The notes under the pieces: model-generated | The model's input: the letters and a program-made list of their open reading frames with translations, nothing else | The model's database searches: none | What the model was told of the DNA's origin: nothing | Part shown: piece after piece, positions 1,955 through 24,000 of the stretch | Numbering within the stretch: the first letter of the stretch is position 1 | Layout of the letters: every line of letters begins with the position of its first letter | NCBI RefSeq assembly: GCF_004684015.1 | Contig: NZ_SRIA01000013.1 | Span: forward strand, 124,579 to 148,578 | Direction: 5' to 3' | DNA: 24,000 nucleotides | Origin: Serratia proteamaculans | GTDB lineage: Bacteria > Pseudomonadota > Gammaproteobacteria > Enterobacterales > Enterobacteriaceae | Position numbers and translations under genes: made by a program

Positions 1955-5445
<3,491 letters not shown>

Positions 5446-12852: not shown

Positions 12853-13046
12853 TGAAGGTTCCTTATTTATAAGCTGTAAAATTATTGTCCTGGAGGGCAG
12901 CAAAATCAACAACACGCGTTAAAACAAAAAATCCACGCCTTGGCGCTGAGGGATCCCCATAAATCAGCGCTAATAAACCAACACCATATTTCGGTAGGTT
13001 TTGGCGAGATGCTTCAGAATGGTGCTCAGCGCCATTCGATATAAAA

Positions 13047-13603: not shown

Positions 13604-15235
13604 ATGTTAACAGGTAAGCTACGCAACCAGGTCGATGAGATCTGGACCTCCTTCTGGACCGGCGGAATCGCTAATCCCACTTCGGTTATCGAACAATTCA
13701 CCTATCTGCTGTTTATCCGCCGTCTGGATGAGCTTGAGATGCAGCGTGAGAATCAGGCGTTGTTGCGTAGCAGCTGTCTGCAAAACGCGCTCTTTCCGCC
13801 TGACAAACAGCACTACCGCTGGAACAAATTCAAGAACATTGACCCTGAGGAAATGTTTGAGCTTGTAAAGGACAAAGTTTTCCCGTTTATCAAGACTATC
13901 CACGGTCAGCAAAGCGCATTCGCTCGCCACATGAAAGACGCCATCTTCATGATCCCCAGCGCCCCAATGCTGGATAAAGTGGTTAACTTGATCGACAAGC
14001 TGGAAATGGACGATCGTGATACAAAAGGCGATCTCTACGAATACATGTTGAGCAAGTTGGGATCAGCAGGGACCAACGGCCAGTTCCGTACCCCGCGTCA
14101 TATCATCAAAATGATGGTGAATATGACCGAGCCAAAACTTGGTGGCGACAGCAGCGATGTGATTTGTGACCCGGCTTCCGGCACCTGTGGCTTCCTGATG
14201 GCCGCGGAAGAATATGTGCGCACACACCATAAAACCGCGTTAATGAAGCCAGAAAACAGCGCTCATTTCCATAATGTGATGTTCAATGCTTACGATTTTG
14301 ATCAGTCGATGCTGCGCATTGGCGCCATGAACATGATGCAGCATGGCGTGGATAACCCTGTAGTTGAATACCGCGATAGCCTGATGGATTACGGCGAAGA
14401 CAACATCAAAGACAAATTCACCCTGATCCTGGCTAACCCGCCGTTTAAGGGCAGCGTGGCCTACGATGAATTGTCGCCAGATTTGCTGACCGCACTGGGC
14501 AAATCGCCGAAAAAAGCCGAAAAGAAAGTCGTTAAGACAGAAGACGGCGAAGAGAAGAAGAAAAAAGACCCAACCGAGAAAACCGAGCTGTTGTTCCTGG
14601 CGCTGATCCTGCGCATGCTGCAGCCAGGTGGTCGCGCAGCCGTAATTGTGCCGGACGGTGTATTGTTTGGTTCGACAAAATCGCACCGTGAAATTCGTAA
14701 GACCTTGGTGGAAAAGCATAAGCTGGATGCGGTTGTTTCCCTGCCTTCTGGCGTGTTTAAACCTTACGCAGGTGTTTCAACAGCCATTCTGTTCTTCACC
14801 AAAACCAACAGCGGCGGGACGGATGATGTGTGGTTTTATGATATGCAAGCCGACGGTTTCTCGCTGGATGATAAACGTACACCGCTGATTAAAGACCAGC
14901 CGCTAACCACTGAAGCAGATACCGTTGATGAACAGGCTGCAGAAGGTGTTCAGGCTCCTTCAGAATTACCTAACCACAAATTGAGCAATATCCCTGATGT
15001 GTTGTGGCGTTGGCAAAATGCGCATAAAGAGATCGGACGTAAGCGCACCGATCAAAGCTTCTTTGTCCCAAAAAGTGAGATCGTGGAGAAAGAGTACGAT
15101 CTCAGCATCAACCGTTATAAAGAGACGCTGTATGAGGAAGTTAAGTACGAATCTCCAGCGGTGATTTTGCAGCGAATTAAAGAACTGCAAAAGGCGATGG
15201 AACAAGGGATTGCTGATTTGGAGAAAATGCTGTGA
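13604..15235 (+). CDS. hsdM: Type I restriction-modification system, DNA methyltransferase subunit HsdM (N6-adenine)
   Basis: N-terminal HsdM_N-like region (IWTSFWTGGI, QFTYLLFIRRLDE), AdoMet motif I DPASGTCGFL (from nt 14168), catalytic motif IV NPPF (14435-14446) and GGRAAVIVPDGVLFG. AGGAA Shine-Dalgarno lies before the ATG. It is followed by hsdS and hsdR. Confidence 0.95.
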   Translation: MLTGKLRNQVDEIWTSFWTGGIANPTSVIEQFTYLLFIRRLDELEMQRENQALLRSSCLQNALFPPDKQHYRWNKFKNIDPEEMFELVKDKVFPFIKTIHGQQSAFARHMKDAIFMIPSAPMLDKVVNLIDKLEMDDRDTKGDLYEYMLSKLGSAGTNGQFRTPRHIIKMMVNMTEPKLGGDSSDVICDPASGTCGFLMAAEEYVRTHHKTALMKPENSAHFHNVMFNAYDFDQSMLRIGAMNMMQHGVDNPVVEYRDSLMDYGEDNIKDKFTLILANPPFKGSVAYDELSPDLLTALGKSPKKAEKKVVKTEDGEEKKKKDPTEKTELLFLALILRMLQPGGRAAVIVPDGVLFGSTKSHREIRKTLVEKHKLDAVVSLPSGVFKPYAGVSTAILFFTKTNSGGTDDVWFYDMQADGFSLDDKRTPLIKDQPLTTEADTVDEQAAEGVQAPSELPNHKLSNIPDVLWRWQNAHKEIGRKRTDQSFFVPKSEIVEKEYDLSINRYKETLYEEVKYESPAVILQRIKELQKAMEQGIADLEKML

Positions 15236-16470
15236 ATTGGTCGATGGTGAAGTTGGGTGAGGTCCTTACATTTATAAGAGGAATCACTTTCAAGCCTGAA
15301 GAAAAGATAGATGCGTCTCATCCTGATGCTGTTATTTGTATGAGGACGAAAAACATTCAGGATGAACTGGACGAATCAGATTTAATTGCTGTTCCAAAGG
15401 CTCTTGTTAAAAGAGAAGAACTCTTTCTTAAACATGGTGATATCTTAATATCTAGTGCCAACAGTTGGAACTTAGTAGGTAAAGTCGTGCAGGTACCAAA
15501 ACTTGATTACCAGTCCACTGCTGGAGGGTTCATTTCTATATTGAGACCTGTTTTGGATAAAGTGCTGCCAGATTATTTATATTTATTTATTAATTCAGAG
15601 CAGGTTCAGCATGATATTCGATTGCTTGGAAAACAAACAACCAACATTTCAAATTTGGATCGTAAACGATTTCTTGAGCTGGAAATTCCGTTACCACCCG
15701 TTTCAATTCAAAAGCGAATAGCTGAAATACTTATGCAGTGCGGGGATTTACGTAAGCAATCTATTCAAATTAGCTCAGAACTCAACGCGCTGGCGCAAGC
15801 TGTCTATGAATCTAATGTGGGAATATCTGCAAAAGAACATTCTAATTGGAGCAGTTACACCATTTCAGATCTTTGCGATACAAGCAAAAGCAGCATGCGT
15901 ACAGGCCCATTTGGCAGTGATTTAAAACATTCAGAATTTGTCTCTTCTGGTGTTGCCGTAATCGGTATTGACAATGCAGTTTCAAATGAATTTCGTTGGG
16001 TTGAGCGGCGTTTCATAACAAAGCAAAAATATGAGAAATTAAAAAGATATACTGTTCATCCTCATGATGTAATCATTACCATTATGGGGACAACTGGCCG
16101 GGTTGCTGTGATTCCTGCTGATATACCTCTTGCAATTTCCACCAAGCACTTGGCGGTTTTAACACTTGATAAAAATAAGGCTAATCCTCATTTTATAGCT
16201 GATACTCTTAAATGGAATTCTCATGTCATAGAGCAAATTAAGAGAAGTAATAAGGGGGCTATCATGGATGGGTTAAATCTGGGGACAATAAAATCACTGG
16301 CCGTTGTGCTTCCTCCAAAAGAAATACAAGATGAATATGTTCTAAAAGCGAAAGCTATTCAGGACAGAATTGCAGAAACAAAAGAACTGAGTTTGACTCT
16401 TGAATTACAGTTCAACGCCCTAATGCAACGCGCCTTCTCCGGAAAACTGGACCTCAAAAAAGTGGCCTGA
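15232..16470 (+). CDS. hsdS: Type I restriction-modification system, specificity subunit HsdS
   Basis: GTGA start/stop overlap with hsdM. It has two variable target-recognition halves, each followed by a conserved helical spacer (LPPVSIQKRIAEIL... and LPPKEIQDEYV...LMQRAFSGKL). It is visibly AT-richer than its neighbours, as is usual for hsdS. Confidence 0.9.
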   Translation: MNWSMVKLGEVLTFIRGITFKPEEKIDASHPDAVICMRTKNIQDELDESDLIAVPKALVKREELFLKHGDILISSANSWNLVGKVVQVPKLDYQSTAGGFISILRPVLDKVLPDYLYLFINSEQVQHDIRLLGKQTTNISNLDRKRFLELEIPLPPVSIQKRIAEILMQCGDLRKQSIQISSELNALAQAVYESNVGISAKEHSNWSSYTISDLCDTSKSSMRTGPFGSDLKHSEFVSSGVAVIGIDNAVSNEFRWVERRFITKQKYEKLKRYTVHPHDVIITIMGTTGRVAVIPADIPLAISTKHLAVLTLDKNKANPHFIADTLKWNSHVIEQIKRSNKGAIMDGLNLGTIKSLAVVLPPKEIQDEYVLKAKAIQDRIAETKELSLTLELQFNALMQRAFSGKLDLKKVA

Positions 16471-16486
16471 TAAGTAAGGATACCCG

Positions 16487-19400
16487 ATGTCGAATTTTGC
16501 TTTCTTAAGTGAGTGGTCAGAAATTCAGCTAAATGCTCAGCAGGCGGAGAAAATGCTGAACAGCGATCCCCGTACCTGTTGTTTTTACAGTCGTTACACG
16601 CTGGAGCGAGCTGTTCACTGGATGTATGAATTCGACAGGGGATTACTGAAACCTAAGTATGATACCAGCCTTAACACGTTAATAAACCAGCCTGATTTTC
16701 GCGATTTGGTGGGGACCAGCGTTTTCCCTAAGATTAAAGCGATCCAGAAATCAGGTAATAATGCAGTGCACAGTTCTGCGAAAGTGAGTGCCGCTGTCGC
16801 CACGCAAACCCTGAAAGAGTTGCACCACGTTCTTTACTGGCTCTATCGTACCTATACCGCCCATCAGCCCGCCAGCAATCATGTGTTTGATCTTAAAAAT
16901 GTCCCGCAAACGGTTCATGTTGATGCCGAACTGATTACCCGCAGCGCGCAAAAGCTCAAAGAGTTACAACAGCAACTTGAAGAACGGGATAGTCAGCAGG
17001 AGCGTGAAGAGGAAAAACGCGAGCGGGAAAATGCCACCCTACGCCAGGAGCTGGAACAACTTAAAGCGAGAGTTGCTGAGCGTAAGCTGCAAAACGTTGA
17101 AGTTAAGGACAGTCATAATTACAACGAAGCTGAAACCCGTCACTTTATTATCGACCAATACCTAAAAGAGATGGGGTGGCTACTGGAGGACAGTCGCGAT
17201 CGCGAATATCCGGTCGCAGGAATGCCTCTTTCCAGCCAAAATCCGCAGGGAAATGGTTTTGTTGATTATGTTCTCTGGGGAGAAGACGGCAAGCCGCTGG
17301 CGGTTGTTGAGGCTAAACGTACTACAGTGGACGTTCAGCAGGGGAAGCGTCAGGCTGAACTTTATGCTGATTGCCTGCAGCAGGACTCCCGGTTTGAGGG
17401 CCGCCGCCCGTTAATCTATTTCACCAATGGCTATGAGATCTTCTTCTGGGACGATCTGAACTATGTGCCGCGTAAAGTGCAGGGTTTTTTATCCAGAGAT
17501 GAAATGCAGCGTCTGATCGATCGTCGCGAGTTGGCACAAAATCTGAATAATGTCGAGATCGACACGAGTATTGCTGGTCATAAACGCCCCTATCAACAGC
17601 AGGCTATTCGGGCTGTGTGTGAACAATTTGACCAGCAGCGTCGGCGCAAAGCGCTGTTAGTGATGGCTACTGGGACAGGGAAAACCCGAACGATTATCGG
17701 CCTGCTGGACCTCTTGATGCGCGCAGGTTGGGTAAAGAACGCATTATTTCTCGCTGATCGTAATGCACTGGTGACCCAGGCTAAAAAGGAGTTCTCAAAG
17801 CTGTTGCCGAAATGCTCACCGGAGATTCTGAGTGGGGCAACCAGTACATTGAAAGGACGACTGTATCTGTCAACTTACCCCACTATGATGAACTTGCTTA
17901 GCGCACCGGCGGACAGTCGCTTGTTCGGCGTCGGGCATTTTGACCTGGTGATTGTCGATGAAGCTCATCGCTCGGTTTATAAGAAATACGGCTATATCTT
18001 CGACTATTTTGATTCCCTGTTAGTGGGCCTGACCGCAACACCGAAAGCCGATCTTGATAAAAATACCTATGACGTCTTTCAGTTACCTGACGATGACCCG
18101 ACCTTTGCTTATGAACTACAGGAAGCCATCGATGATGGTTACCTCGTTCCACCGCGCGACGTCCGTGTTGAGCTGGGCTTTGTACGACAGGGGATTAAAT
18201 ACAGTGAATTAAGCAAAGATGAGCAGGAAGAGTGGGAAAGCAGTGAAGAGTTGGCCGAGCGGGATGAGGTGCTGCCTTCTGAAATTAACGAATTCTTATT
18301 TAATAAACCCACGGTTACTGCGGCCCTCAAAACACTAATGGAAAGAGGGATTAAAGTTGCAGGCGGCGACAGATTGGCGAAGACGATTATTTTTGCAGCA
18401 AATAATCGTCATGCACAGTTTATCAATGAGGTGTTCGATGACAATTTCCCAAAATTTAAAGGGAAATTTGCTCGCACGGTAACCTATAAAGAAAAATATG
18501 CCGAAAGCCTTATTGAAGAATTTAAAGGCGAACGAGACCCTGTTGATCCCAATACGCCTATGACGCTGGCTATTTCTGTCGATATGCTTGATACCGGCGT
18601 GGATGTCCCTGAAGTTTCCAATCTGATGTTTTTTAAGGTTGTTAAGTCTAAGGTGAAGTTCATGCAAATGCTGGGGCGTGGTACCCGACTGTGCGAGAAA
18701 TTATTCGGCCCCGTGACCCCGGATGATGACAAAATAGAATTTAAAGTATTCGACATCTGCCAGAATTTTGAGTATTTCGAAATGAATCCGCAGGGAGCCG
18801 CAGATTCTGCTGGTAAGTCGCTGTCACAGTCGTTATTTGAGAATCGCTTGATGCTGGCTCAGGTGCTAAAAGGCCACGAGGAAAGCGGTAACTATGGCGG
18901 GACCCTCAGGCAATATTTGCTGACAATGCTTCACCATCGTGTTGCTGGTATGAGCCTGGATAATTTTATTGTCCGTCCTAACCGTAAGCTGGTTGAGAAG
19001 TACCAGAAAGCCTTGATTTGGCAGGATTTGACGGATGAACATCTTGGCGAATTGATTAGTCAAATATCCCGGCTACCAAGTGCAGCGGAACCGCTTGATG
19101 AAAAGGAGCGGGAAGAAGAGTTGGCGTTGCGTTTCGATCAGTTAATTTTGACGATGCAGCTGGCTTTGCTTGAACGTAGAGGCGTTAGCGATACTCAGCA
19201 GGACAAATTGCTACAGATTGCCCAGAAGCTGAAAAGTAAGGCCAGCATTCCTCTGGTTGAAGTGCAAATCGAATGGCTCGAGTATGTGCTGAGTAAACAC
19301 TTCTGGCAGGAACTTTCCCTTGAAGATCTGGAGAAGACTCGCCTGCGTTTGCGTTTGTTGCTCCGGTTTGTCGATAAAGATAGCACGGGTGTGGTCTACA

Positions 19401-19948
19401 CCAATTTTCAGGATGAGCTCCTCTCTGTGCATGAGAGTGAATCACCCTACACCTTTACCTATGGCGATGCGTTAACGCTGTACAGGAAACGTGTTGAATC
19501 CTGGGTGAGGGAACACCAGCATGACCTCACTATCCAGAGGCTGCGTCGTGGGCAACATATTACTAAACTTGATCTTGAACTACTGGATCACAAGCTGTTT
19601 GAAGCGAGCGGTATCGAGAATACCGAGACTTACCAACAAACAATTCATCCCGATAAGCCTTTGGGCATTTTTATACGTGAACTTGTTGGGCTTGATCGCC
19701 ATGCGGCCAAAGCCGCGTTTGCCGATTATCTCGATGAGACTCGTTTTGATAGTCAGCAGATTCATTTCGTCAACACTATCATAGAATGGTTGACGGAAAA
19801 CGGTACGATGAGTCCGGAACGACTGGCCCAGCCTCCATTCACCGATGAGCATTTTGAGGGAGTATTTGGAATATTTGATGTTCCAACAGCGATGGTGTTA
19901 CGCGACAGACTCATCAGCATTGAACATAGTGCAGTTGGCCAAATTTAG
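16487..19948 (+). CDS. hsdR: Type I restriction enzyme, endonuclease/translocase subunit HsdR (1153 aa) with N-terminal extension
   Basis: PD-(D/E)xK nuclease core D260...E275-A-K277 (FVDYVLWGEDGKPLAVVEAKR, nt 17264-17317). SF2 helicase motif I MATGTGKT (17663-17686), motif II DEAH (17957-17968) and motif VI QMLGRGTR. The C-terminal region resembles the EcoEI-type HsdR C-terminal domain. The start lies 16 nt after hsdS with an AAGGA SD. Confidence 0.93.
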   Translation: MSNFAFLSEWSEIQLNAQQAEKMLNSDPRTCCFYSRYTLERAVHWMYEFDRGLLKPKYDTSLNTLINQPDFRDLVGTSVFPKIKAIQKSGNNAVHSSAKVSAAVATQTLKELHHVLYWLYRTYTAHQPASNHVFDLKNVPQTVHVDAELITRSAQKLKELQQQLEERDSQQEREEEKRERENATLRQELEQLKARVAERKLQNVEVKDSHNYNEAETRHFIIDQYLKEMGWLLEDSRDREYPVAGMPLSSQNPQGNGFVDYVLWGEDGKPLAVVEAKRTTVDVQQGKRQAELYADCLQQDSRFEGRRPLIYFTNGYEIFFWDDLNYVPRKVQGFLSRDEMQRLIDRRELAQNLNNVEIDTSIAGHKRPYQQQAIRAVCEQFDQQRRRKALLVMATGTGKTRTIIGLLDLLMRAGWVKNALFLADRNALVTQAKKEFSKLLPKCSPEILSGATSTLKGRLYLSTYPTMMNLLSAPADSRLFGVGHFDLVIVDEAHRSVYKKYGYIFDYFDSLLVGLTATPKADLDKNTYDVFQLPDDDPTFAYELQEAIDDGYLVPPRDVRVELGFVRQGIKYSELSKDEQEEWESSEELAERDEVLPSEINEFLFNKPTVTAALKTLMERGIKVAGGDRLAKTIIFAANNRHAQFINEVFDDNFPKFKGKFARTVTYKEKYAESLIEEFKGERDPVDPNTPMTLAISVDMLDTGVDVPEVSNLMFFKVVKSKVKFMQMLGRGTRLCEKLFGPVTPDDDKIEFKVFDICQNFEYFEMNPQGAADSAGKSLSQSLFENRLMLAQVLKGHEESGNYGGTLRQYLLTMLHHRVAGMSLDNFIVRPNRKLVEKYQKALIWQDLTDEHLGELISQISRLPSAAEPLDEKEREEELALRFDQLILTMQLALLERRGVSDTQQDKLLQIAQKLKSKASIPLVEVQIEWLEYVLSKHFWQELSLEDLEKTRLRLRLLLRFVDKDSTGVVYTNFQDELLSVHESESPYTFTYGDALTLYRKRVESWVREHQHDLTIQRLRRGQHITKLDLELLDHKLFEASGIENTETYQQTIHPDKPLGIFIRELVGLDRHAAKAAFADYLDETRFDSQQIHFVNTIIEWLTENGTMSPERLAQPPFTDEHFEGVFGIFDVPTAMVLRDRLISIEHSAVGQI

Positions 19949-19993: not shown

Positions 19994-20374
19994 TTGTCCG
20001 ATCAGCGTTAACTATTAGGTTGTCTGTCATGCCTGTTTTTGGTTATTCTTTTATTAAGAGCGTACGGACACATATGGACTAAAAGCGTCATGGTGAATTA
20101 TTGATGCAACTGTGAAGTGCATAAGAGGGAATATGTTTGGCAATCTCTTTAGAAATATATCTTTTGGCGAAATGCCCGCCGAAAGCTCCATACAATAAAG
20201 CCCTGTACCAAAATTACCACATCTGACGATGCCCACTCTGAATGCTTCACAACCGAAGCCGCGTCAACGGTATGCCCTGACAACAACGCATTACCTGCGG
20301 ATCTGATCGTCTTTCTCCCCCTCAGAAAATACACATTCATCCTAAAGCATCAACTGCTTTCGGGGCTGGGAAAA

Positions 20375-20974
20375 GTGTCACAATTTGTACTTAAGGCACT
20401 ATCTAGGGAAGGATTCGGGCTGGAGGATATTGAGCGTATTACAGGCCTGACGGAAGAACATTTGTCGCCAATTTTGAGTCGACTGGCCGCTTTGGGCTGG
20501 TATGAACCCGCGCGCATGGAATTAACTCCTCGGGGATATGAAATGGCAAAGGCGGCCGGATTGACCGGGCGTCGTTTCTCCCTGTGGATCGATGGGTTGG
20601 ATAACAGAAACTCCCCCTTAATCCTCATTTCCGCTAACCAGATTGTACAACCGGAGGATGACAGACACGGGATTCGATTACCTGAATTTGAACGTGACTG
20701 GAATATCCTTGAAGTTCTACAGCAGCAGAGGTTATCGCGGAGACTGAGCGCCTATAAGGACAACGAAGGGGATCTCATGCCGCTGCTGTTGCTGCTTTGC
20801 GATGAAGCAGAACATGCTGCGCTGCAGCAGCAGAAGCTGGCCTGGGATTTCGAGCTGGAACTTGATCGCGAGTTATCCCAGCCGGGCTATATCGAACTCA
20901 TGCTTGCGCAGGGGCTTGCTATCGGTAATGACAGCGGTAAGCCGGTCAATCTCGGGTTGATTGCACAACAATAA
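20375..20974 (+). CDS. Hypothetical protein with N-terminal winged-helix-like domain (199 codons from GTG); possibly a gene fragment
   Basis: Long ORF with protein-like composition. The first ~60 aa look like a wHTH (SQFVLKALSREGFGLEDIERITGLTEEHLSPILSRLAALGWYE..LTPRGYEMA). I recognise no family for the rest. The only canonical start is the GTG at 20375, with weak GGGA upstream, and the frame is open a further 74 codons upstream without a start codon. Confidence 0.5.
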   Translation: MSQFVLKALSREGFGLEDIERITGLTEEHLSPILSRLAALGWYEPARMELTPRGYEMAKAAGLTGRRFSLWIDGLDNRNSPLILISANQIVQPEDDRHGIRLPEFERDWNILEVLQQQRLSRRLSAYKDNEGDLMPLLLLLCDEAEHAALQQQKLAWDFELELDRELSQPGYIELMLAQGLAIGNDSGKPVNLGLIAQQ

Positions 20975-20978
20975 ATAT

Positions 20979-22553
20979 TCAGTTTGTCTTTAGATGCGCC
21001 CATAGTCTGTCTAGCAATTGGCTGGAACTCTCGGCATTTTGCATTGTAAAGCAACCAGTCTGATGTTCCTGCCACCACGATTCGGATTCAAGCTCGGCAA
21101 GATGGTCATTACAGGGGACCAGCAGCAACGAAAGCACCGGACGTTTTCGCTCCCATCTCAGGCTGTCGTGATAAATATGAGCTGATGCCATCTCTTCAAG
21201 AATACGTTTGCTTCGCGAAGTGTATTTGCTGTCCAGGCAAATAAATTGTGTCATTCCAGCATTTACCACCTCCAGTACCAAATCAGGTCGACGCATCCCA
21301 CTGATGGAGTGAGGGACGTTTTGATTCGCTGAAGGCCTATGAAGTATTGCACGAAATGATTTCTGACTGTGCAGCCTTATACTGAAACCTTCGTGTTTTG
21401 CACGAAATGTGAGCCTGCCTGAATGCTGCGACAGCTGCCATTTCATATGTGGGAACTTTCGCTTCAGGCCGTTTGTTAAGGCAACGAAGCACCAGACTTC
21501 ATAAATGGCCCAGCTAGGTATCAGATAATGACTTTCATCACTGGATAGTCCGGATATGCCCTCACGAAGTAATCTCACTCCCATGCGCCACGTCAGCTGA
21601 TAATGAGGATGTCCGGCTACAGACTCGAAGTCCATCCCATAGGATTTTTCGGCATCTGTGGATGAAAAAGGCAGTTGCTGGGTGACATGCCGCAAGTGTT
21701 TTTTAATTACTGTAAGATAATTAATTCTACGAATTAGCCTCTCATTCAGGCTGGTTCGAGTCTCTGAGGCTTCGTTAACCGTTGTCGTCAGATCGCGTTT
21801 CAGGTCAGTAAGAATCTGTGTCACTCGTCGGTCTATCAAATTTAACTGGAATTTGAGCTGGCGATTTGCCGGCGTATCCCAGGACTTATCTATAAAAGTC
21901 GCCTGTACCTGCAGATTTTGAACGTCTCTGAAGGCAGAGCTGGTATTGGCTCTGGTCCCGGTCAGCAAATCTGCATGCTGGATGAGTTGCTGCACAACGG
22001 AAGGCGTGAGCTTTTTCAATCTTCCCAGCGTGTACAGTTGAGTCTGTTGTTGATAGCCTTGTACCGGGGTTAGAAGGACGGCTTTTAATCCCTGAGCATA
22101 GAGCGGAAAGAACTGCTTTATTCGAGCGTAACGTAGCCAGAGCCCAGCAAAGCGCGAAATGCCACCCAACTGGTGCTGCCCGGGTTCACTCCCTGCCAGT
22201 CTTGCACTGTCAAAATGAACAATGTCCTGAATAAATTGTTGCCAGGCTTGCTTACCGCTTTTGTCTGGGTCATTACTCACATCGACACGCCAACTTATAA
22301 TGGTGGCCTGATCGCTCAGAACGAGTTCCAGATCTACTTCTCCTGCGTAGAAACCCGGCTGCCAGACCCAGTAGTCCGGTATTCTCTGCAGACAGGCATC
22401 ATCAACATATAGCTGTGCTGACTGCAGATCTTTCGGGCATTCGATAAAGTACCTGCAACGTTCCGAAAACCCCCTTATAGGCTGATTTGCGGTATCCAGC
22501 AGTGCGGTGGGGGTAGCGCTGCGATTTCCTTCTTCCCAGACTCTGAGTCTCAT
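20979..22553 (-). CDS. McrC-like nuclease subunit: DUF2357-like N-terminal region plus C-terminal PD-(D/E)xK nuclease (524 aa)
   Basis: Translationally coupled to the upstream AAA+ gene (TGA-t-ATG at 22551-22557). It has an N-terminal WVWQPGFYAGEVDLEL-type segment and a C-terminal E352 (YEVW), P423-D424 (RRPDLVLEV) and D441-S-K443 (ICLDSKY), nt 21225-21287, which is a restriction-endonuclease-like core. Confidence 0.7.
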   Translation of the reverse strand: MRLRVWEEGNRSATPTALLDTANQPIRGFSERCRYFIECPKDLQSAQLYVDDACLQRIPDYWVWQPGFYAGEVDLELVLSDQATIISWRVDVSNDPDKSGKQAWQQFIQDIVHFDSARLAGSEPGQHQLGGISRFAGLWLRYARIKQFFPLYAQGLKAVLLTPVQGYQQQTQLYTLGRLKKLTPSVVQQLIQHADLLTGTRANTSSAFRDVQNLQVQATFIDKSWDTPANRQLKFQLNLIDRRVTQILTDLKRDLTTTVNEASETRTSLNERLIRRINYLTVIKKHLRHVTQQLPFSSTDAEKSYGMDFESVAGHPHYQLTWRMGVRLLREGISGLSSDESHYLIPSWAIYEVWCFVALTNGLKRKFPHMKWQLSQHSGRLTFRAKHEGFSIRLHSQKSFRAILHRPSANQNVPHSISGMRRPDLVLEVVNAGMTQFICLDSKYTSRSKRILEEMASAHIYHDSLRWERKRPVLSLLLVPCNDHLAELESESWWQEHQTGCFTMQNAESSSQLLDRLWAHLKTN

Positions 22554-22554
22554 A

Positions 22555-24000
22555 TCAGCGCCAGAACCTCATCATGCCAGCATTCTCCAGGTCACTTGAT
22601 AAGGATATTAACTTGTTAGCACACTGTGGTAGGTTAAGTTTCAGACAGAGGGCATGACAGTCCTGAAGCATTTTTCGCAAACGAGCGCTATCTGAACCGC
22701 GAATCTTAGGTAAAACGCGGGCGTAAATGACGTCATCAAGGGCATCTACAAGGTTAAAAGAAGTCAGCTGTCGCGCAAGTGAGATGTGGCTGAGTACATC
22801 TTCTATGGTGCGCCAACCAAAGTGCAAGCGCTCAGGCTTTAAATACTCCATAAGTGAAGTTAAAACATCACGAACATGCCCCAGTTCTCCAACACTGAGT
22901 CCGTAGTTGTTCCAGCCCGGAAAGTTTTTCAGGTCAATCTCCCAAAACTCCATAGTCCATGCCCGGTCGAGCACTTTATCAGACAGGCTAAGCGTGGTTT
23001 CATCCATGTTAAGTGTTCCGATAAAGGCGACATTGGAAGGATAACGTAGGCGCGCTGGCACTCCATCAAACATATCGCCCTCACTGTGAAGCATCAGCTG
23101 TGTTCCAGATTCCATCGCAGACAGGAAGGGCGCGAAATAATGCTCCGGGTGAGAAAGATTCATTTCATCGAGTATAACGACGAACGGGATCTCTGGTGAA
23201 TTAGCTGCTTCCAGCAAAAAGTTTAGTAACGGGGTTCGGGTATAACTTTCTGGTCTGAGGGGGTTTATATAGCCCAGAAGCGCAGAGGGATCGTACCAAC
23301 CGGATAGCACGGGTTGAACAAACCAGGTTTTTTTATCTTCATCGGAAGCGGGGGCAGGATGATGAGTGCTTAGCGCCTGAGCGTATCTCAGTGCGAGTTG
23401 TGTTTTACCTGATCCCGAAAGGCCGGCCAATATTGCGAAGTGCCGCTGTTTGTGTGCCCATAGTCCCAAATGAAGTTGTTCAACCTGTCGTGTCTGGAAT
23501 GCACTATCTTTAATTACGTCGCTGATTATCGCATTTATGTTCAGGGAATGAACACTGAGTTCAGATGAAACCTCATCCACGTCCAGGTCAGTTTCGATGA
23601 CAGGTACTTGAGGCAAGAATTCGGGCTGCCACGTAATGCGATTAGCCCACCTAAGGCCTTCATCTGTCAGGCTGAAGGTTTTCCTTTCGTCCTTTTCAAC
23701 TAAGCCAAGTTGAATAAGCCAGCTCAGTATTGAGCGGGGTACTGTTTCTGATGTCCAACCTGTATGAACTTTGCGGAGTAAAAACAACAACTGTGTAAAA
23801 CTTTGGCTCTCGTCTTTCATCGCACACAGTACATGGTCCACACCCAAAATATGCGTGATCATTACCGGGATTAGTTCTTGAGGATCCTGCGTTCTTAGAA
23901 ATGCTACTCCACGGGAAGAGAGACTAAATATGTCTCCCTCTTTTTCAATCACAAAGAATTCGTTGCTGAGGATGCTGATAATGGTACTCAGGGTACTGTT
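22555..24000 (-). CDS. McrB-type AAA+ (AAA_5) NTPase with winged-helix-like N-terminal region; 5' end probably outside the window
   Basis: Walker A GLSGSGKT (23401-23424), Walker B VVILDEMN (23158-23181) and McrB-position motif GTLNMDETT...DKVLDRA (22960-23019). The frame has no stop between the GTG at 23952 and base 24000 (..NSTLSTIISILSNEFFVIEKEG..), so the true start may lie beyond the window. Confidence 0.8.
   Translation of the reverse strand, partial: NSTLSTIISILSNEFFVIEKEGDIFSLSSRGVAFLRTQDPQELIPVMITHILGVDHVLCAMKDESQSFTQLLFLLRKVHTGWTSETVPRSILSWLIQLGLVEKDERKTFSLTDEGLRWANRITWQPEFLPQVPVIETDLDVDEVSSELSVHSLNINAIISDVIKDSAFQTRQVEQLHLGLWAHKQRHFAILAGLSGSGKTQLALRYAQALSTHHPAPASDEDKKTWFVQPVLSGWYDPSALLGYINPLRPESYTRTPLLNFLLEAANSPEIPFVVILDEMNLSHPEHYFAPFLSAMESGTQLMLHSEGDMFDGVPARLRYPSNVAFIGTLNMDETTLSLSDKVLDRAWTMEFWEIDLKNFPGWNNYGLSVGELGHVRDVLTSLMEYLKPERLHFGWRTIEDVLSHISLARQLTSFNLVDALDDVIYARVLPKIRGSDSARLRKMLQDCHALCLKLNLPQCANKLISLSSDLENAGMMRFWR

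Follow-up and report, generated by a model that had tools for sequence, protein, structure and literature searches.

The last 3 kb of a 24,000-nucleotide stretch of the Serratia proteamaculans genome (NCBI RefSeq assembly GCF_004684015.1, contig NZ_SRIA01000013.1, positions 124,579 to 148,578 of the forward strand; hereafter, the window) carry two adjacent minus-strand genes that resemble the subunits of McrBC, a GTP-dependent restriction enzyme that is the prototype of type IV. An earlier note on this DNA had singled out the pair as an atypical McrBC-like nucleoside triphosphatase (NTPase) and nuclease with a possible role in defense. The analysis described here makes it likely that the NTPase (subunit B) and the nuclease (subunit C) constitute a self-contained, mobile, two-gene restriction cassette of the McrBC type, belonging to the NxD branch of McrB GTPases.

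Gene organization of the pair

The two genes are coupled by a TGA-t-ATG junction, and the sequence at 22557-22551 reads just as the earlier note had described it; likewise, every motif listed in that note translates as claimed at the claimed position (Table 1). The upstream open reading frame (ORF) is uninterrupted for 481 codons, from base 24000 to a TGA at 22555-22557. Since its full-length relatives are 753 aa long, the window holds residues 273-753 of the NTPase, and approximately 816 nt of 5' coding sequence lie outside, past base 24000. Homologues with 93-98% identity all have this length, including the 98%-identical protein P0003, while other full-length relatives, close or distant, measure ~750 aa. 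When 8000 candidates were scored against the NTPase fragment, 1844 protein clusters matched at E≤0.001, with identities of up to 98%; in NCBI, the relatives bear the product names “McrB family protein” (B) and “DUF2357 domain-containing protein” (C). Judged from sequence comparison, the motif set and the support from homologues go far beyond what chance would produce.

Table 1. Coordinates of the gene pair, its domains and motifs, and flanking features (window positions; residue numbers refer to full-length B or to C; AF2, AlphaFold2).
Feature	Position	Strand	Basis
McrB-like NTPase gene (B), 3' part (residues 273-753 of 753 aa + stop)	22555..24000	-	frame open to window edge
Predicted all-alpha module (B residues 1-205)	beyond window		AF2
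Conserved basic linker PAxQRRKGL...GG (B residues ~222-240)	beyond window		AF2 + alignment
Predicted winged helix 1, C-terminal part (B residues 273-299 of 241-299)	23920..24000	-	AF2
Predicted winged helix 2 (B residues 326-392), conserved P-G-W-T motif	23641..23841	-	AF2
Low-confidence linker (B residues 405-417)			AF2
McrB-type AAA+ NTPase core (B residues 427-753)	22558..23538	-	Foldseek, phmmer, PADLOC
Walker A GLSGSGKT	23401..23424	-	G465, S467, G468, G470, K471 invariant in 44
Walker B VVILDEMN	23158..23181	-	D550, E551, N553 invariant in 44
Signature/sensor-1 N-M-D-E, shortened NxD(E) form of McrB NxxD	22999..23010	-	invariant N603-M-D-E-T-T
DKVLDRA Asp/Lys/Arg segment	22960..22980	-	aligns to E. 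coli McrB VVDYALRRRF
TGA-t-ATG gene junction (translational coupling)	22551..22557	-	sequence reading
McrC-like nuclease gene (C), complete, 524 aa	20979..22553	-	ORF, Pfam, conservation, AF2, Foldseek
N-terminal Ig-like beta-sandwich (C residues 1-93), near-invariant WxWxPGFYAGE	22275..22553	-	AF2 all-beta 3-93, Foldseek
DUF2357 helical region (C residues 101-330)	21564..22253	-	Pfam 26.8 bits, cut-off 23.3
PD-(D/E)xK nuclease domain (C residues 348-503)	21045..21512	-	Pfam PDDEXK_7 30.3 bits, cut-off 22.1
3' end of mobile cassette; identity to other copies stops at 20940	20940..20978	.	blastn
199-codon ORF	20375-20974	+	truncated copy of 272-aa protein
hsdR (type I restriction-modification operon)	16487-19948	+	
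hsdS (same operon)	15232-16470	+	
hsdM (same operon)	13604-15235	+	

Two metagenomic contigs (L001 and L002) share 96% DNA identity with the window over positions 20940-24000, and in both the NTPase ORF is complete beyond that region. Together with the 753-aa relatives, they indicate that the NTPase gene copy in the window is probably intact. A decaying or non-functional copy, with the NTPase gene disrupted just past the window edge, would be compatible with the position of the 5' end outside the window and with the recombination scar that abuts the 3' edge of the cassette. One gene of the pair is also split into two ORFs at six other loci (L027, L031, L034, L038, L054, and L063); these are probably frameshifts or assembly errors, and some of those copies may be decaying. 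In the window, however, the frame is uninterrupted at 93-98% identity to full-length proteins, all invariant motifs are kept, and the partner gene is complete, such that decay of this copy is very unlikely.

The AAA+ core and its placement in the NxD branch

The structure of B was predicted with AF2 from P0003, using an alignment of 44 sequences (mean predicted local distance difference test, or pLDDT, of 85). In Foldseek searches of the PDB, the AAA+ core was most similar to McrB chains (6ut6, 6ut4, and 6hz4; E-values of 9e-6 to 1e-4), with NorQ interleaved with the McrB chains from rank 5 onward, followed by MoxR-type ATPases; the best solved structures for the NTPase are the McrBs of Escherichia coli and Thermococcus gammatolerans. 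The phmmer alignment of the core with E. coli McrB extends from Walker B via sensor-1 to the Arg-rich segment. The DKVLDRA segment within this alignment is probably the arginine-finger region, and its residues D613, K614, D617, and R618 are invariant among the 44 homologues.

In the stretch GTLNMDETTLSLSDKVLDRA, encoded at 22960-23019 of the minus strand, the position of MNTADRS in E. coli McrB is occupied by N-M-D-E-T-T, with Glu rather than Asp at the fourth place of NTAD; the canonical NxxD signature is absent from B, as N-M-D-E is found in all 44 sequences. McrB GTPases have been divided by this motif, and those with NxD, usually followed by Glu or Asp, form a separate branch (Bell et al. 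2024, PMC11090510). The invariant N-M-D-E places B in the NxD branch. In blastp comparisons, the core matches NxD proteins of Acidobacteriota, Bacillota, Myxococcota, and Thermococcaceae at 1e-44 to 1e-114, versus 1e-4 to 0.03 for canonical NxxD McrBs, a separation of more than 40 orders of magnitude. The motif GT(V/L)NMDETT also recurs in archaeal relatives and in those of other phyla. Finally, a CnuB fragment from a type I-A CoCoNuT matches the core at 2e-8, in a comparison confined to Walker A and the PVxPxW...LLGYxNPL region.

The McrC-like nuclease

Subunit C was likewise modeled with AF2 (pLDDT 82), and its conservation was assessed over 45 diverse homologues; the nuclease search as a whole returned 148 matches. 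The N-terminal sandwich of C resembles FN3/PKD/Ig modules in Foldseek searches (e.g., 3pe9, prob 0.99). The motif DYWVWQPGFYAGE lies at residues 60-72, and most of WxWxPGFYAGE is invariant in the 45 homologues. An Ig-like β-sandwich has been described on McrC homologues of the NxD clade, including members that are not CoCoNuTs (PMC11090510), and its presence on C fits the placement of B in that branch.

The helices of the DUF2357 region fall at residues 136-161, 228-258, and 269-291 of the AF2 model; in E. coli McrC, it is the DUF2357 region that interacts with McrB. Two of these helices are long, and the nuclease domain that follows is modeled as an alpha/beta fold. In the nuclease domain, the catalytic residues E352, P423-D424, and D441-S-K443 are all present (P423 to K443 are encoded at 21225-21287), and E352, D424, D441, and K443 are invariant in 45/45 homologues. 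By these sequence criteria, the PD-(D/E)xK site of C is intact. The only strong PDB match of C in Foldseek is E. coli McrC (6hz4_M; 8e-5 over 446 columns), and this, alongside the McrB matches of B, bears out the identification of the genes as a McrB/McrC-type pair in the earlier note.

The N-terminal region of subunit B

The part of B that precedes the P-loop had been read in the earlier note as at least two winged-helix units, and AF2 predicts both, each as a helix-helix-helix-hairpin unit with a pLDDT mostly between 85 and 94. Predicted winged helix 1 consists of helices at residues 241-250, 257-267, and 273-285 and strands at 290-293 and 296-299 (pLDDT ~85-93), and predicted winged helix 2 of helices at 326-332, 340-350, and 358-369, strands at 373-375 and 380-383, and a further helix at 385-392. 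In the winged-helix alignment (A4), W119, P125, G152, and W155, assigned to winged helix 2, are invariant. Sub-threshold winged helix-turn-helix (wHTH) matches agree with the predictions: among the 44 members, DUF7669 is seen in 9, HTH_45 in 6, and Mrr_N in 6, with DUF7669 falling under winged helix 1 and the other two under winged helix 2. The best PDB profile match, Sso10a (E=0.038), covers profile positions 41-74, within winged helix 1 and outside winged helix 2. A phage protein with a FokI-like recognition domain also surfaced as a possible relative of the winged helices; this fold match was weak (E=0.05) and was not relied on.

When three full-length homologues were compared with Pfam to E=1, no family was found ahead of their AAA+ core, MrcB_N/DUF3578 included, and only faint wHTH-type matches appeared. 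As the earlier note had supposed, the N-terminus of B therefore differs from the N-domain of E. coli McrB. The predicted winged helices make up one part of the sensor region and are preceded, outside the window, by an all-alpha module of 205 residues (hereafter, the N-module).

The searches run matched the N-module to no fold class. Among 1.84 billion representatives, 168 proteins were retrieved with residues 1-252 as the query, and several of these carry the module in architectures beyond the NxD pair (P0257, P0265, P0290, P0312, and P0316). For example, the N-module is placed in some proteins between an EVE domain and an AAA_5 McrB core with a canonical NxxD signature (MNTADRS). In one fusion, it lies downstream of an Mrr_N domain, at a distance of ~200 residues. 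Two further proteins begin with the module, namely a CHAT-protease/AAA_5 protein (1289 aa) and a KAP NTPase (1167 aa). The near-invariant positions of the module are W, G, P, R, P, and R, and its alignment contains no conserved acidic or His residues that would hint at catalysis. With this residue pattern and these varied architectures, the N-module has the look of a portable unit for binding or regulation.

Short forms of B, of ~545-590 aa, occur in Spirochaetia, Acidobacteriota, and Chloroflexota (L035, L037, L040-L043, and L047). They retain the N-module and the NxD core and are ~165-210 residues shorter, which corresponds in size to the winged-helix pair with its linkers. Judging by this length and by the end point of the N-module match, the missing part would be the winged helices, suggesting that these are an optional insertion, dispensable in the short forms.

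On a different view, the pair would be a CoCoNuT-like RNA-targeting or abortive-infection system, in which the nuclease, or the host cell, would be the real target after infection has been sensed. In favor of this view, the N-module is also present on CHAT-protease/AAA_5 and KAP NTPase proteins, both characteristic of sensor-effector immunity, and CoCoNuTs have the NxD motif and an Ig-like domain on McrC in common with the Serratia pair. Still, neither the B nor the C model contains a long coiled coil, the longest B helix having 22 residues. Pfam likewise finds no HEPN, CSD, YTH, or SmpB-like domain in B or C, and, type I restriction-modification (R-M) apart, no gene family recurs beside the pair, a second nuclease included, although the neighbors themselves were not domain-scanned; membership among the CoCoNuTs was rejected on these grounds. 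In addition, CoCoNuT McrCs often have an inactivated PD-(D/E)xK domain (PMC11090510), whereas that of the Serratia pair is preserved. A CoCoNuT-like role is consequently regarded as highly improbable.

Distribution and mobility

Relatives of the NTPase are found at no fewer than 581 places (≥581) in species-representative genomes, and in virtually all of the 60-odd examined loci with both genes, C comes straight after B, almost always with a spacing of ~1-10 nt or an overlap. Relatives in Enterobacterales (Rahnella, Pantoea, Morganella, and Yersinia) are 78-93% identical, and no close DNA relatives were detected in complete E. coli genomes. The phage search revealed essentially no phage-borne copies, and full-length copies reside on megaplasmids or chromids of Cupriavidus, Variovorax, and Burkholderia. 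As a separate observation, 161 Klebsiella plasmids, as well as plasmids of Salmonella, Escherichia, and Enterobacter, encode a more distant relative of the NTPase (<60% identity) that is not among the five records covering ≥80% of the query. This enterobacterial-plasmid relative may be another NxD-type system.

An example of mobility is seen in the metagenomic contig L001 (positions 1-22262), where the 96%-identical cassette occupies another island and has Lamassu LmuA/LmuB, an Mrr-type nuclease, and an HNH protein as neighbors. This dense defense island also encodes AlpA, a phage-type integrase, a dynamin-like GTPase, and a DUF87 ATPase accompanied by an LHH toxin and a SUKH immunity protein. 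The window and L001 cease to match at 20940, 39 nt beyond the McrC stop. Such high DNA identity in a different island, ending just past the McrC stop, indicates that the pair moves as a two-gene cassette between defense islands.

The boundary at 20940 is shared with a second, unrelated element. Positions 20016-20940 of the window are 83% identical to another locus (L083), and this match gives out exactly at the base from which the cassette matches L001; by this comparison, base 20940 is a recombination scar between two defense-type cassettes. The 199-codon ORF downstream of C belongs to the second of these, corresponding to residues 64-218 of the 272-aa protein of L083 (86% identity). In L083 and the related locus L084, the 272-aa gene is the first of an operon, followed by genes for a 117-aa protein and a 961-aa superfamily 1 (SF1) helicase with AAA_11/AAA_12 domains. 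The ORF has two homologues in a collection of 5.8 billion clusters and shows weak matches to MkoB of PADLOC and to wHTH-PRTase_assc of Pfam. It was considered as a third component of the system and ruled out, given the small number of homologues, the unrelated gene that follows the cassette in L001, and its nature as a remnant of the helicase operon.

Genomic surroundings

The defense setting proposed in the earlier note, beside a type I R-M operon, is confirmed by a low-GC block with a complete hsdM-hsdS-hsdR operon. The guanine-plus-cytosine (GC) fraction is 0.40-0.50 from ~13000 to the window end, versus 0.51-0.58 among the sugar-metabolism genes and others upstream, which encode cytochrome c peroxidase, a YgjK-like glucosidase, LacI, LacZ, and a permease; the drop near 13000 marks the edge of a horizontally acquired defense island. 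No tRNA gene is present in the window. In HsdR, DUF4145 lies at the N-terminus and an EcoEI_R_C domain at the C-terminus. Two minus-strand ORFs of the upstream, core-genome part, at 1336-1818 (160 aa) and 4345-5424 (359 aa), have no Pfam match at E≤0.001.

The neighborhood was surveyed by clustering all genes within 5 kb at 35 full-length loci. No third gene is conserved in this sample, and type I R-M genes, at ~7 of the 35 loci, are the only recurrent neighbors. In Zobellella aerophila and Alcanivorax jadensis (L004, 1301-11837; L005, 36-11805), the genes form a co-oriented, tightly packed hsdR-M-S-mcrB-mcrC array, which is possibly a single transcription unit.

This recurrent association raises the alternative that the pair is the modification-blocked nuclease arm of an R-M system, in which unmodified DNA or a specific sequence would be the ligand of the winged helices and N-module, and a methyltransferase encoded elsewhere, such as the neighboring type I HsdM, would protect the host. 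Unmodified DNA is commonly bound by winged helices, and an association with DNA methyltransferases has been reported for many NxD GTPases (Bell et al., PMC11090510); the arrays of Zobellella and Alcanivorax also speak for this alternative. On the other hand, ~28 of the 35 loci have no R-M gene within 5 kb, and the 96%-identical cassette lies in an island where no methyltransferase adjoins it. The pair in the window, moreover, is convergent with the plus-strand hsd operon and outside it, with the scar of another operon between them. A modification-blocked arm is therefore improbable.

Proposed mechanism

The likely role of the pair as a self-contained restriction cassette implies a mechanism that is drawn by analogy with the solved McrBC complexes of E. 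coli and T. gammatolerans. By this analogy, B would assemble as an NTP-bound hexamer, and C would enter the B ring and stimulate hydrolysis, while the N-terminal modules would hold the complex on its target, presumed to be DNA. NTP-driven translocation would then end with C cutting both DNA strands at its PD-(D/E)xK site. As there is no methyltransferase in the cassette, which is found alone in unrelated contexts, the target would be a feature that is foreign to host DNA. Most plausibly, this would be a base modification, making the pair a type IV system in the strict sense, a proposal with roughly even chances of being right. The closest relatives have enterobacterial hosts, which are Dam-positive as a rule, and this argues against N6-methyladenine (6mA) within GATC (G6mATC) as the target of the Serratia member.

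Several points weigh against this reading. Most generally, the NxD branch includes no biochemically studied member (PMC11090510), and a literature search for a later biochemical paper on the branch found none, so nucleotide use, assembly, and substrate are all extrapolations; the shortened signature motif may also alter C-stimulated hydrolysis. Sequence similarity between the core and E. coli McrB is marginal (E=0.078 with phmmer), and the NCBIfam model for McrB, NF008457, scores 16-22.5 bits (17.6 for B) against a cut-off of 637. At the N-terminal end, every match to the winged helices is below threshold, leaving them with no family assignment, and the N-module similarly has no family-level assignment and no sequence relative in Pfam or the PDB. 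The winged helices also show no detectable similarity to the 6mA reader of DpnI, and hence give no direct sign of modification dependence; the A4 profile was compared with DpnI residues 184-257 by hhalign, and the probability of 0.2% refers to a single-sequence template in a class of domains that diverges fast. Finally, the 5' third of the NTPase gene falls outside the window.

Significance

The pair represents a minimal NxD form, consisting of two genes, with the nuclease intact and accessory partners lacking, and its occurrence in Enterobacterales suggests that it should be suited to expression and challenge in E. coli. The N-module may prove to be of wider interest; because it is reused in several NTPase-based defense architectures, knowledge of its ligand would inform beyond one system. 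It is tempting to go further and to suggest that the N-module is an unrecognized, portable sensor or regulatory domain of NTPase-based immunity that, with the winged helices, lets NxD-type McrBC complexes respond to a cue other than the classical 5mC/5hmC marks (for instance, a phage protein, a hypermodified base, or a DNA structure), although this suggestion is speculative and on balance unlikely; if it held, the two-gene cassette from enterobacteria would provide a tractable entry to the whole NxD branch. The pair is a reasonable candidate for experiments. Its general layout is already in print (PMC11037411), and the expected outcome is an extension of known McrBC biology and not a new principle.

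Comparison with known systems

The closest studied counterpart of the Serratia pair is McrBC of E. coli. Both are two-gene operons with B upstream of C; both B subunits have an AAA+ core with Walker A and B motifs, a sensor-1 Asn, and a conserved Arg segment; and both C subunits combine DUF2357 with a PD-(D/E)xK nuclease. A type I R-M system adjoins the genes in each case, the E. coli system being located in the immigration control region. The differences lie in the signature, NxxD in E. coli and NxD(E) in Serratia, in the Ig-like N-terminal domain, present in the Serratia C and absent from E. coli McrC, and in the reader. Whereas E. coli McrB uses a 5mC-binding DUF3578/ADAM reader and T. gammatolerans McrB a YTH-like one, the Serratia B has the all-alpha module and two predicted winged helices instead. 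In line with this, B has no DUF3578/ADAM match in Pfam and is not an equivalog of the E. coli-type McrB, lying far under the NF008457 cut-off.

Among catalogued defense models, PDC-M26A of PADLOC matches the AAA+ core (1e-40 to 3e-41). Membership in PDC-M26 was rejected, as the match is limited to the core, over 2-3 stretches (the best at profile positions ~332-432 of 724); C has no match to the PDC-M26 models in PADLOC, and no paper describing PDC-M26 was found in the literature searched.

Within the NxD branch described by Bell et al., the Serratia pair shares the NxD motif with its following Glu and the Ig-like McrC domain. CoCoNuTs have CnuA/CnuH/CnuE partners and a coiled-coil fusion, all of which are missing from the Serratia pair, and their McrCs are often inactivated, in contrast to its intact C site. 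The authors deferred the non-CoCoNuT NxD systems to a later publication (PMC11090510), and for this reason the two-gene architecture with an N-module and winged helices does not appear there.

A further likeness is found in work by Helbrecht et al. (2024, PMC11037411), in which fusions of an N-terminal domain, a winged helix, and an NTPase (NTD-wH-NTPase), together with an McrC-like subunit, were proposed as putative type IV systems. As described, the layout of this group is that of the Serratia pair. The search that revealed it started from DpnI-like, 6mA-sensing winged helices fused to restriction domains, whereas the Serratia winged helices have no detectable similarity to that of DpnI; the group was not characterized by its authors, who reported one failed attempt at purification. 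Taken as a whole, these comparisons uphold the McrBC-like pair of the earlier note but not the label “atypical,” as the NxD branch is large and catalogued (PMC11090510) and the layout has been described (PMC11037411). The Serratia pair is an intact-looking member of a widespread, catalogued branch of McrBC-type systems and not a new kind of system.

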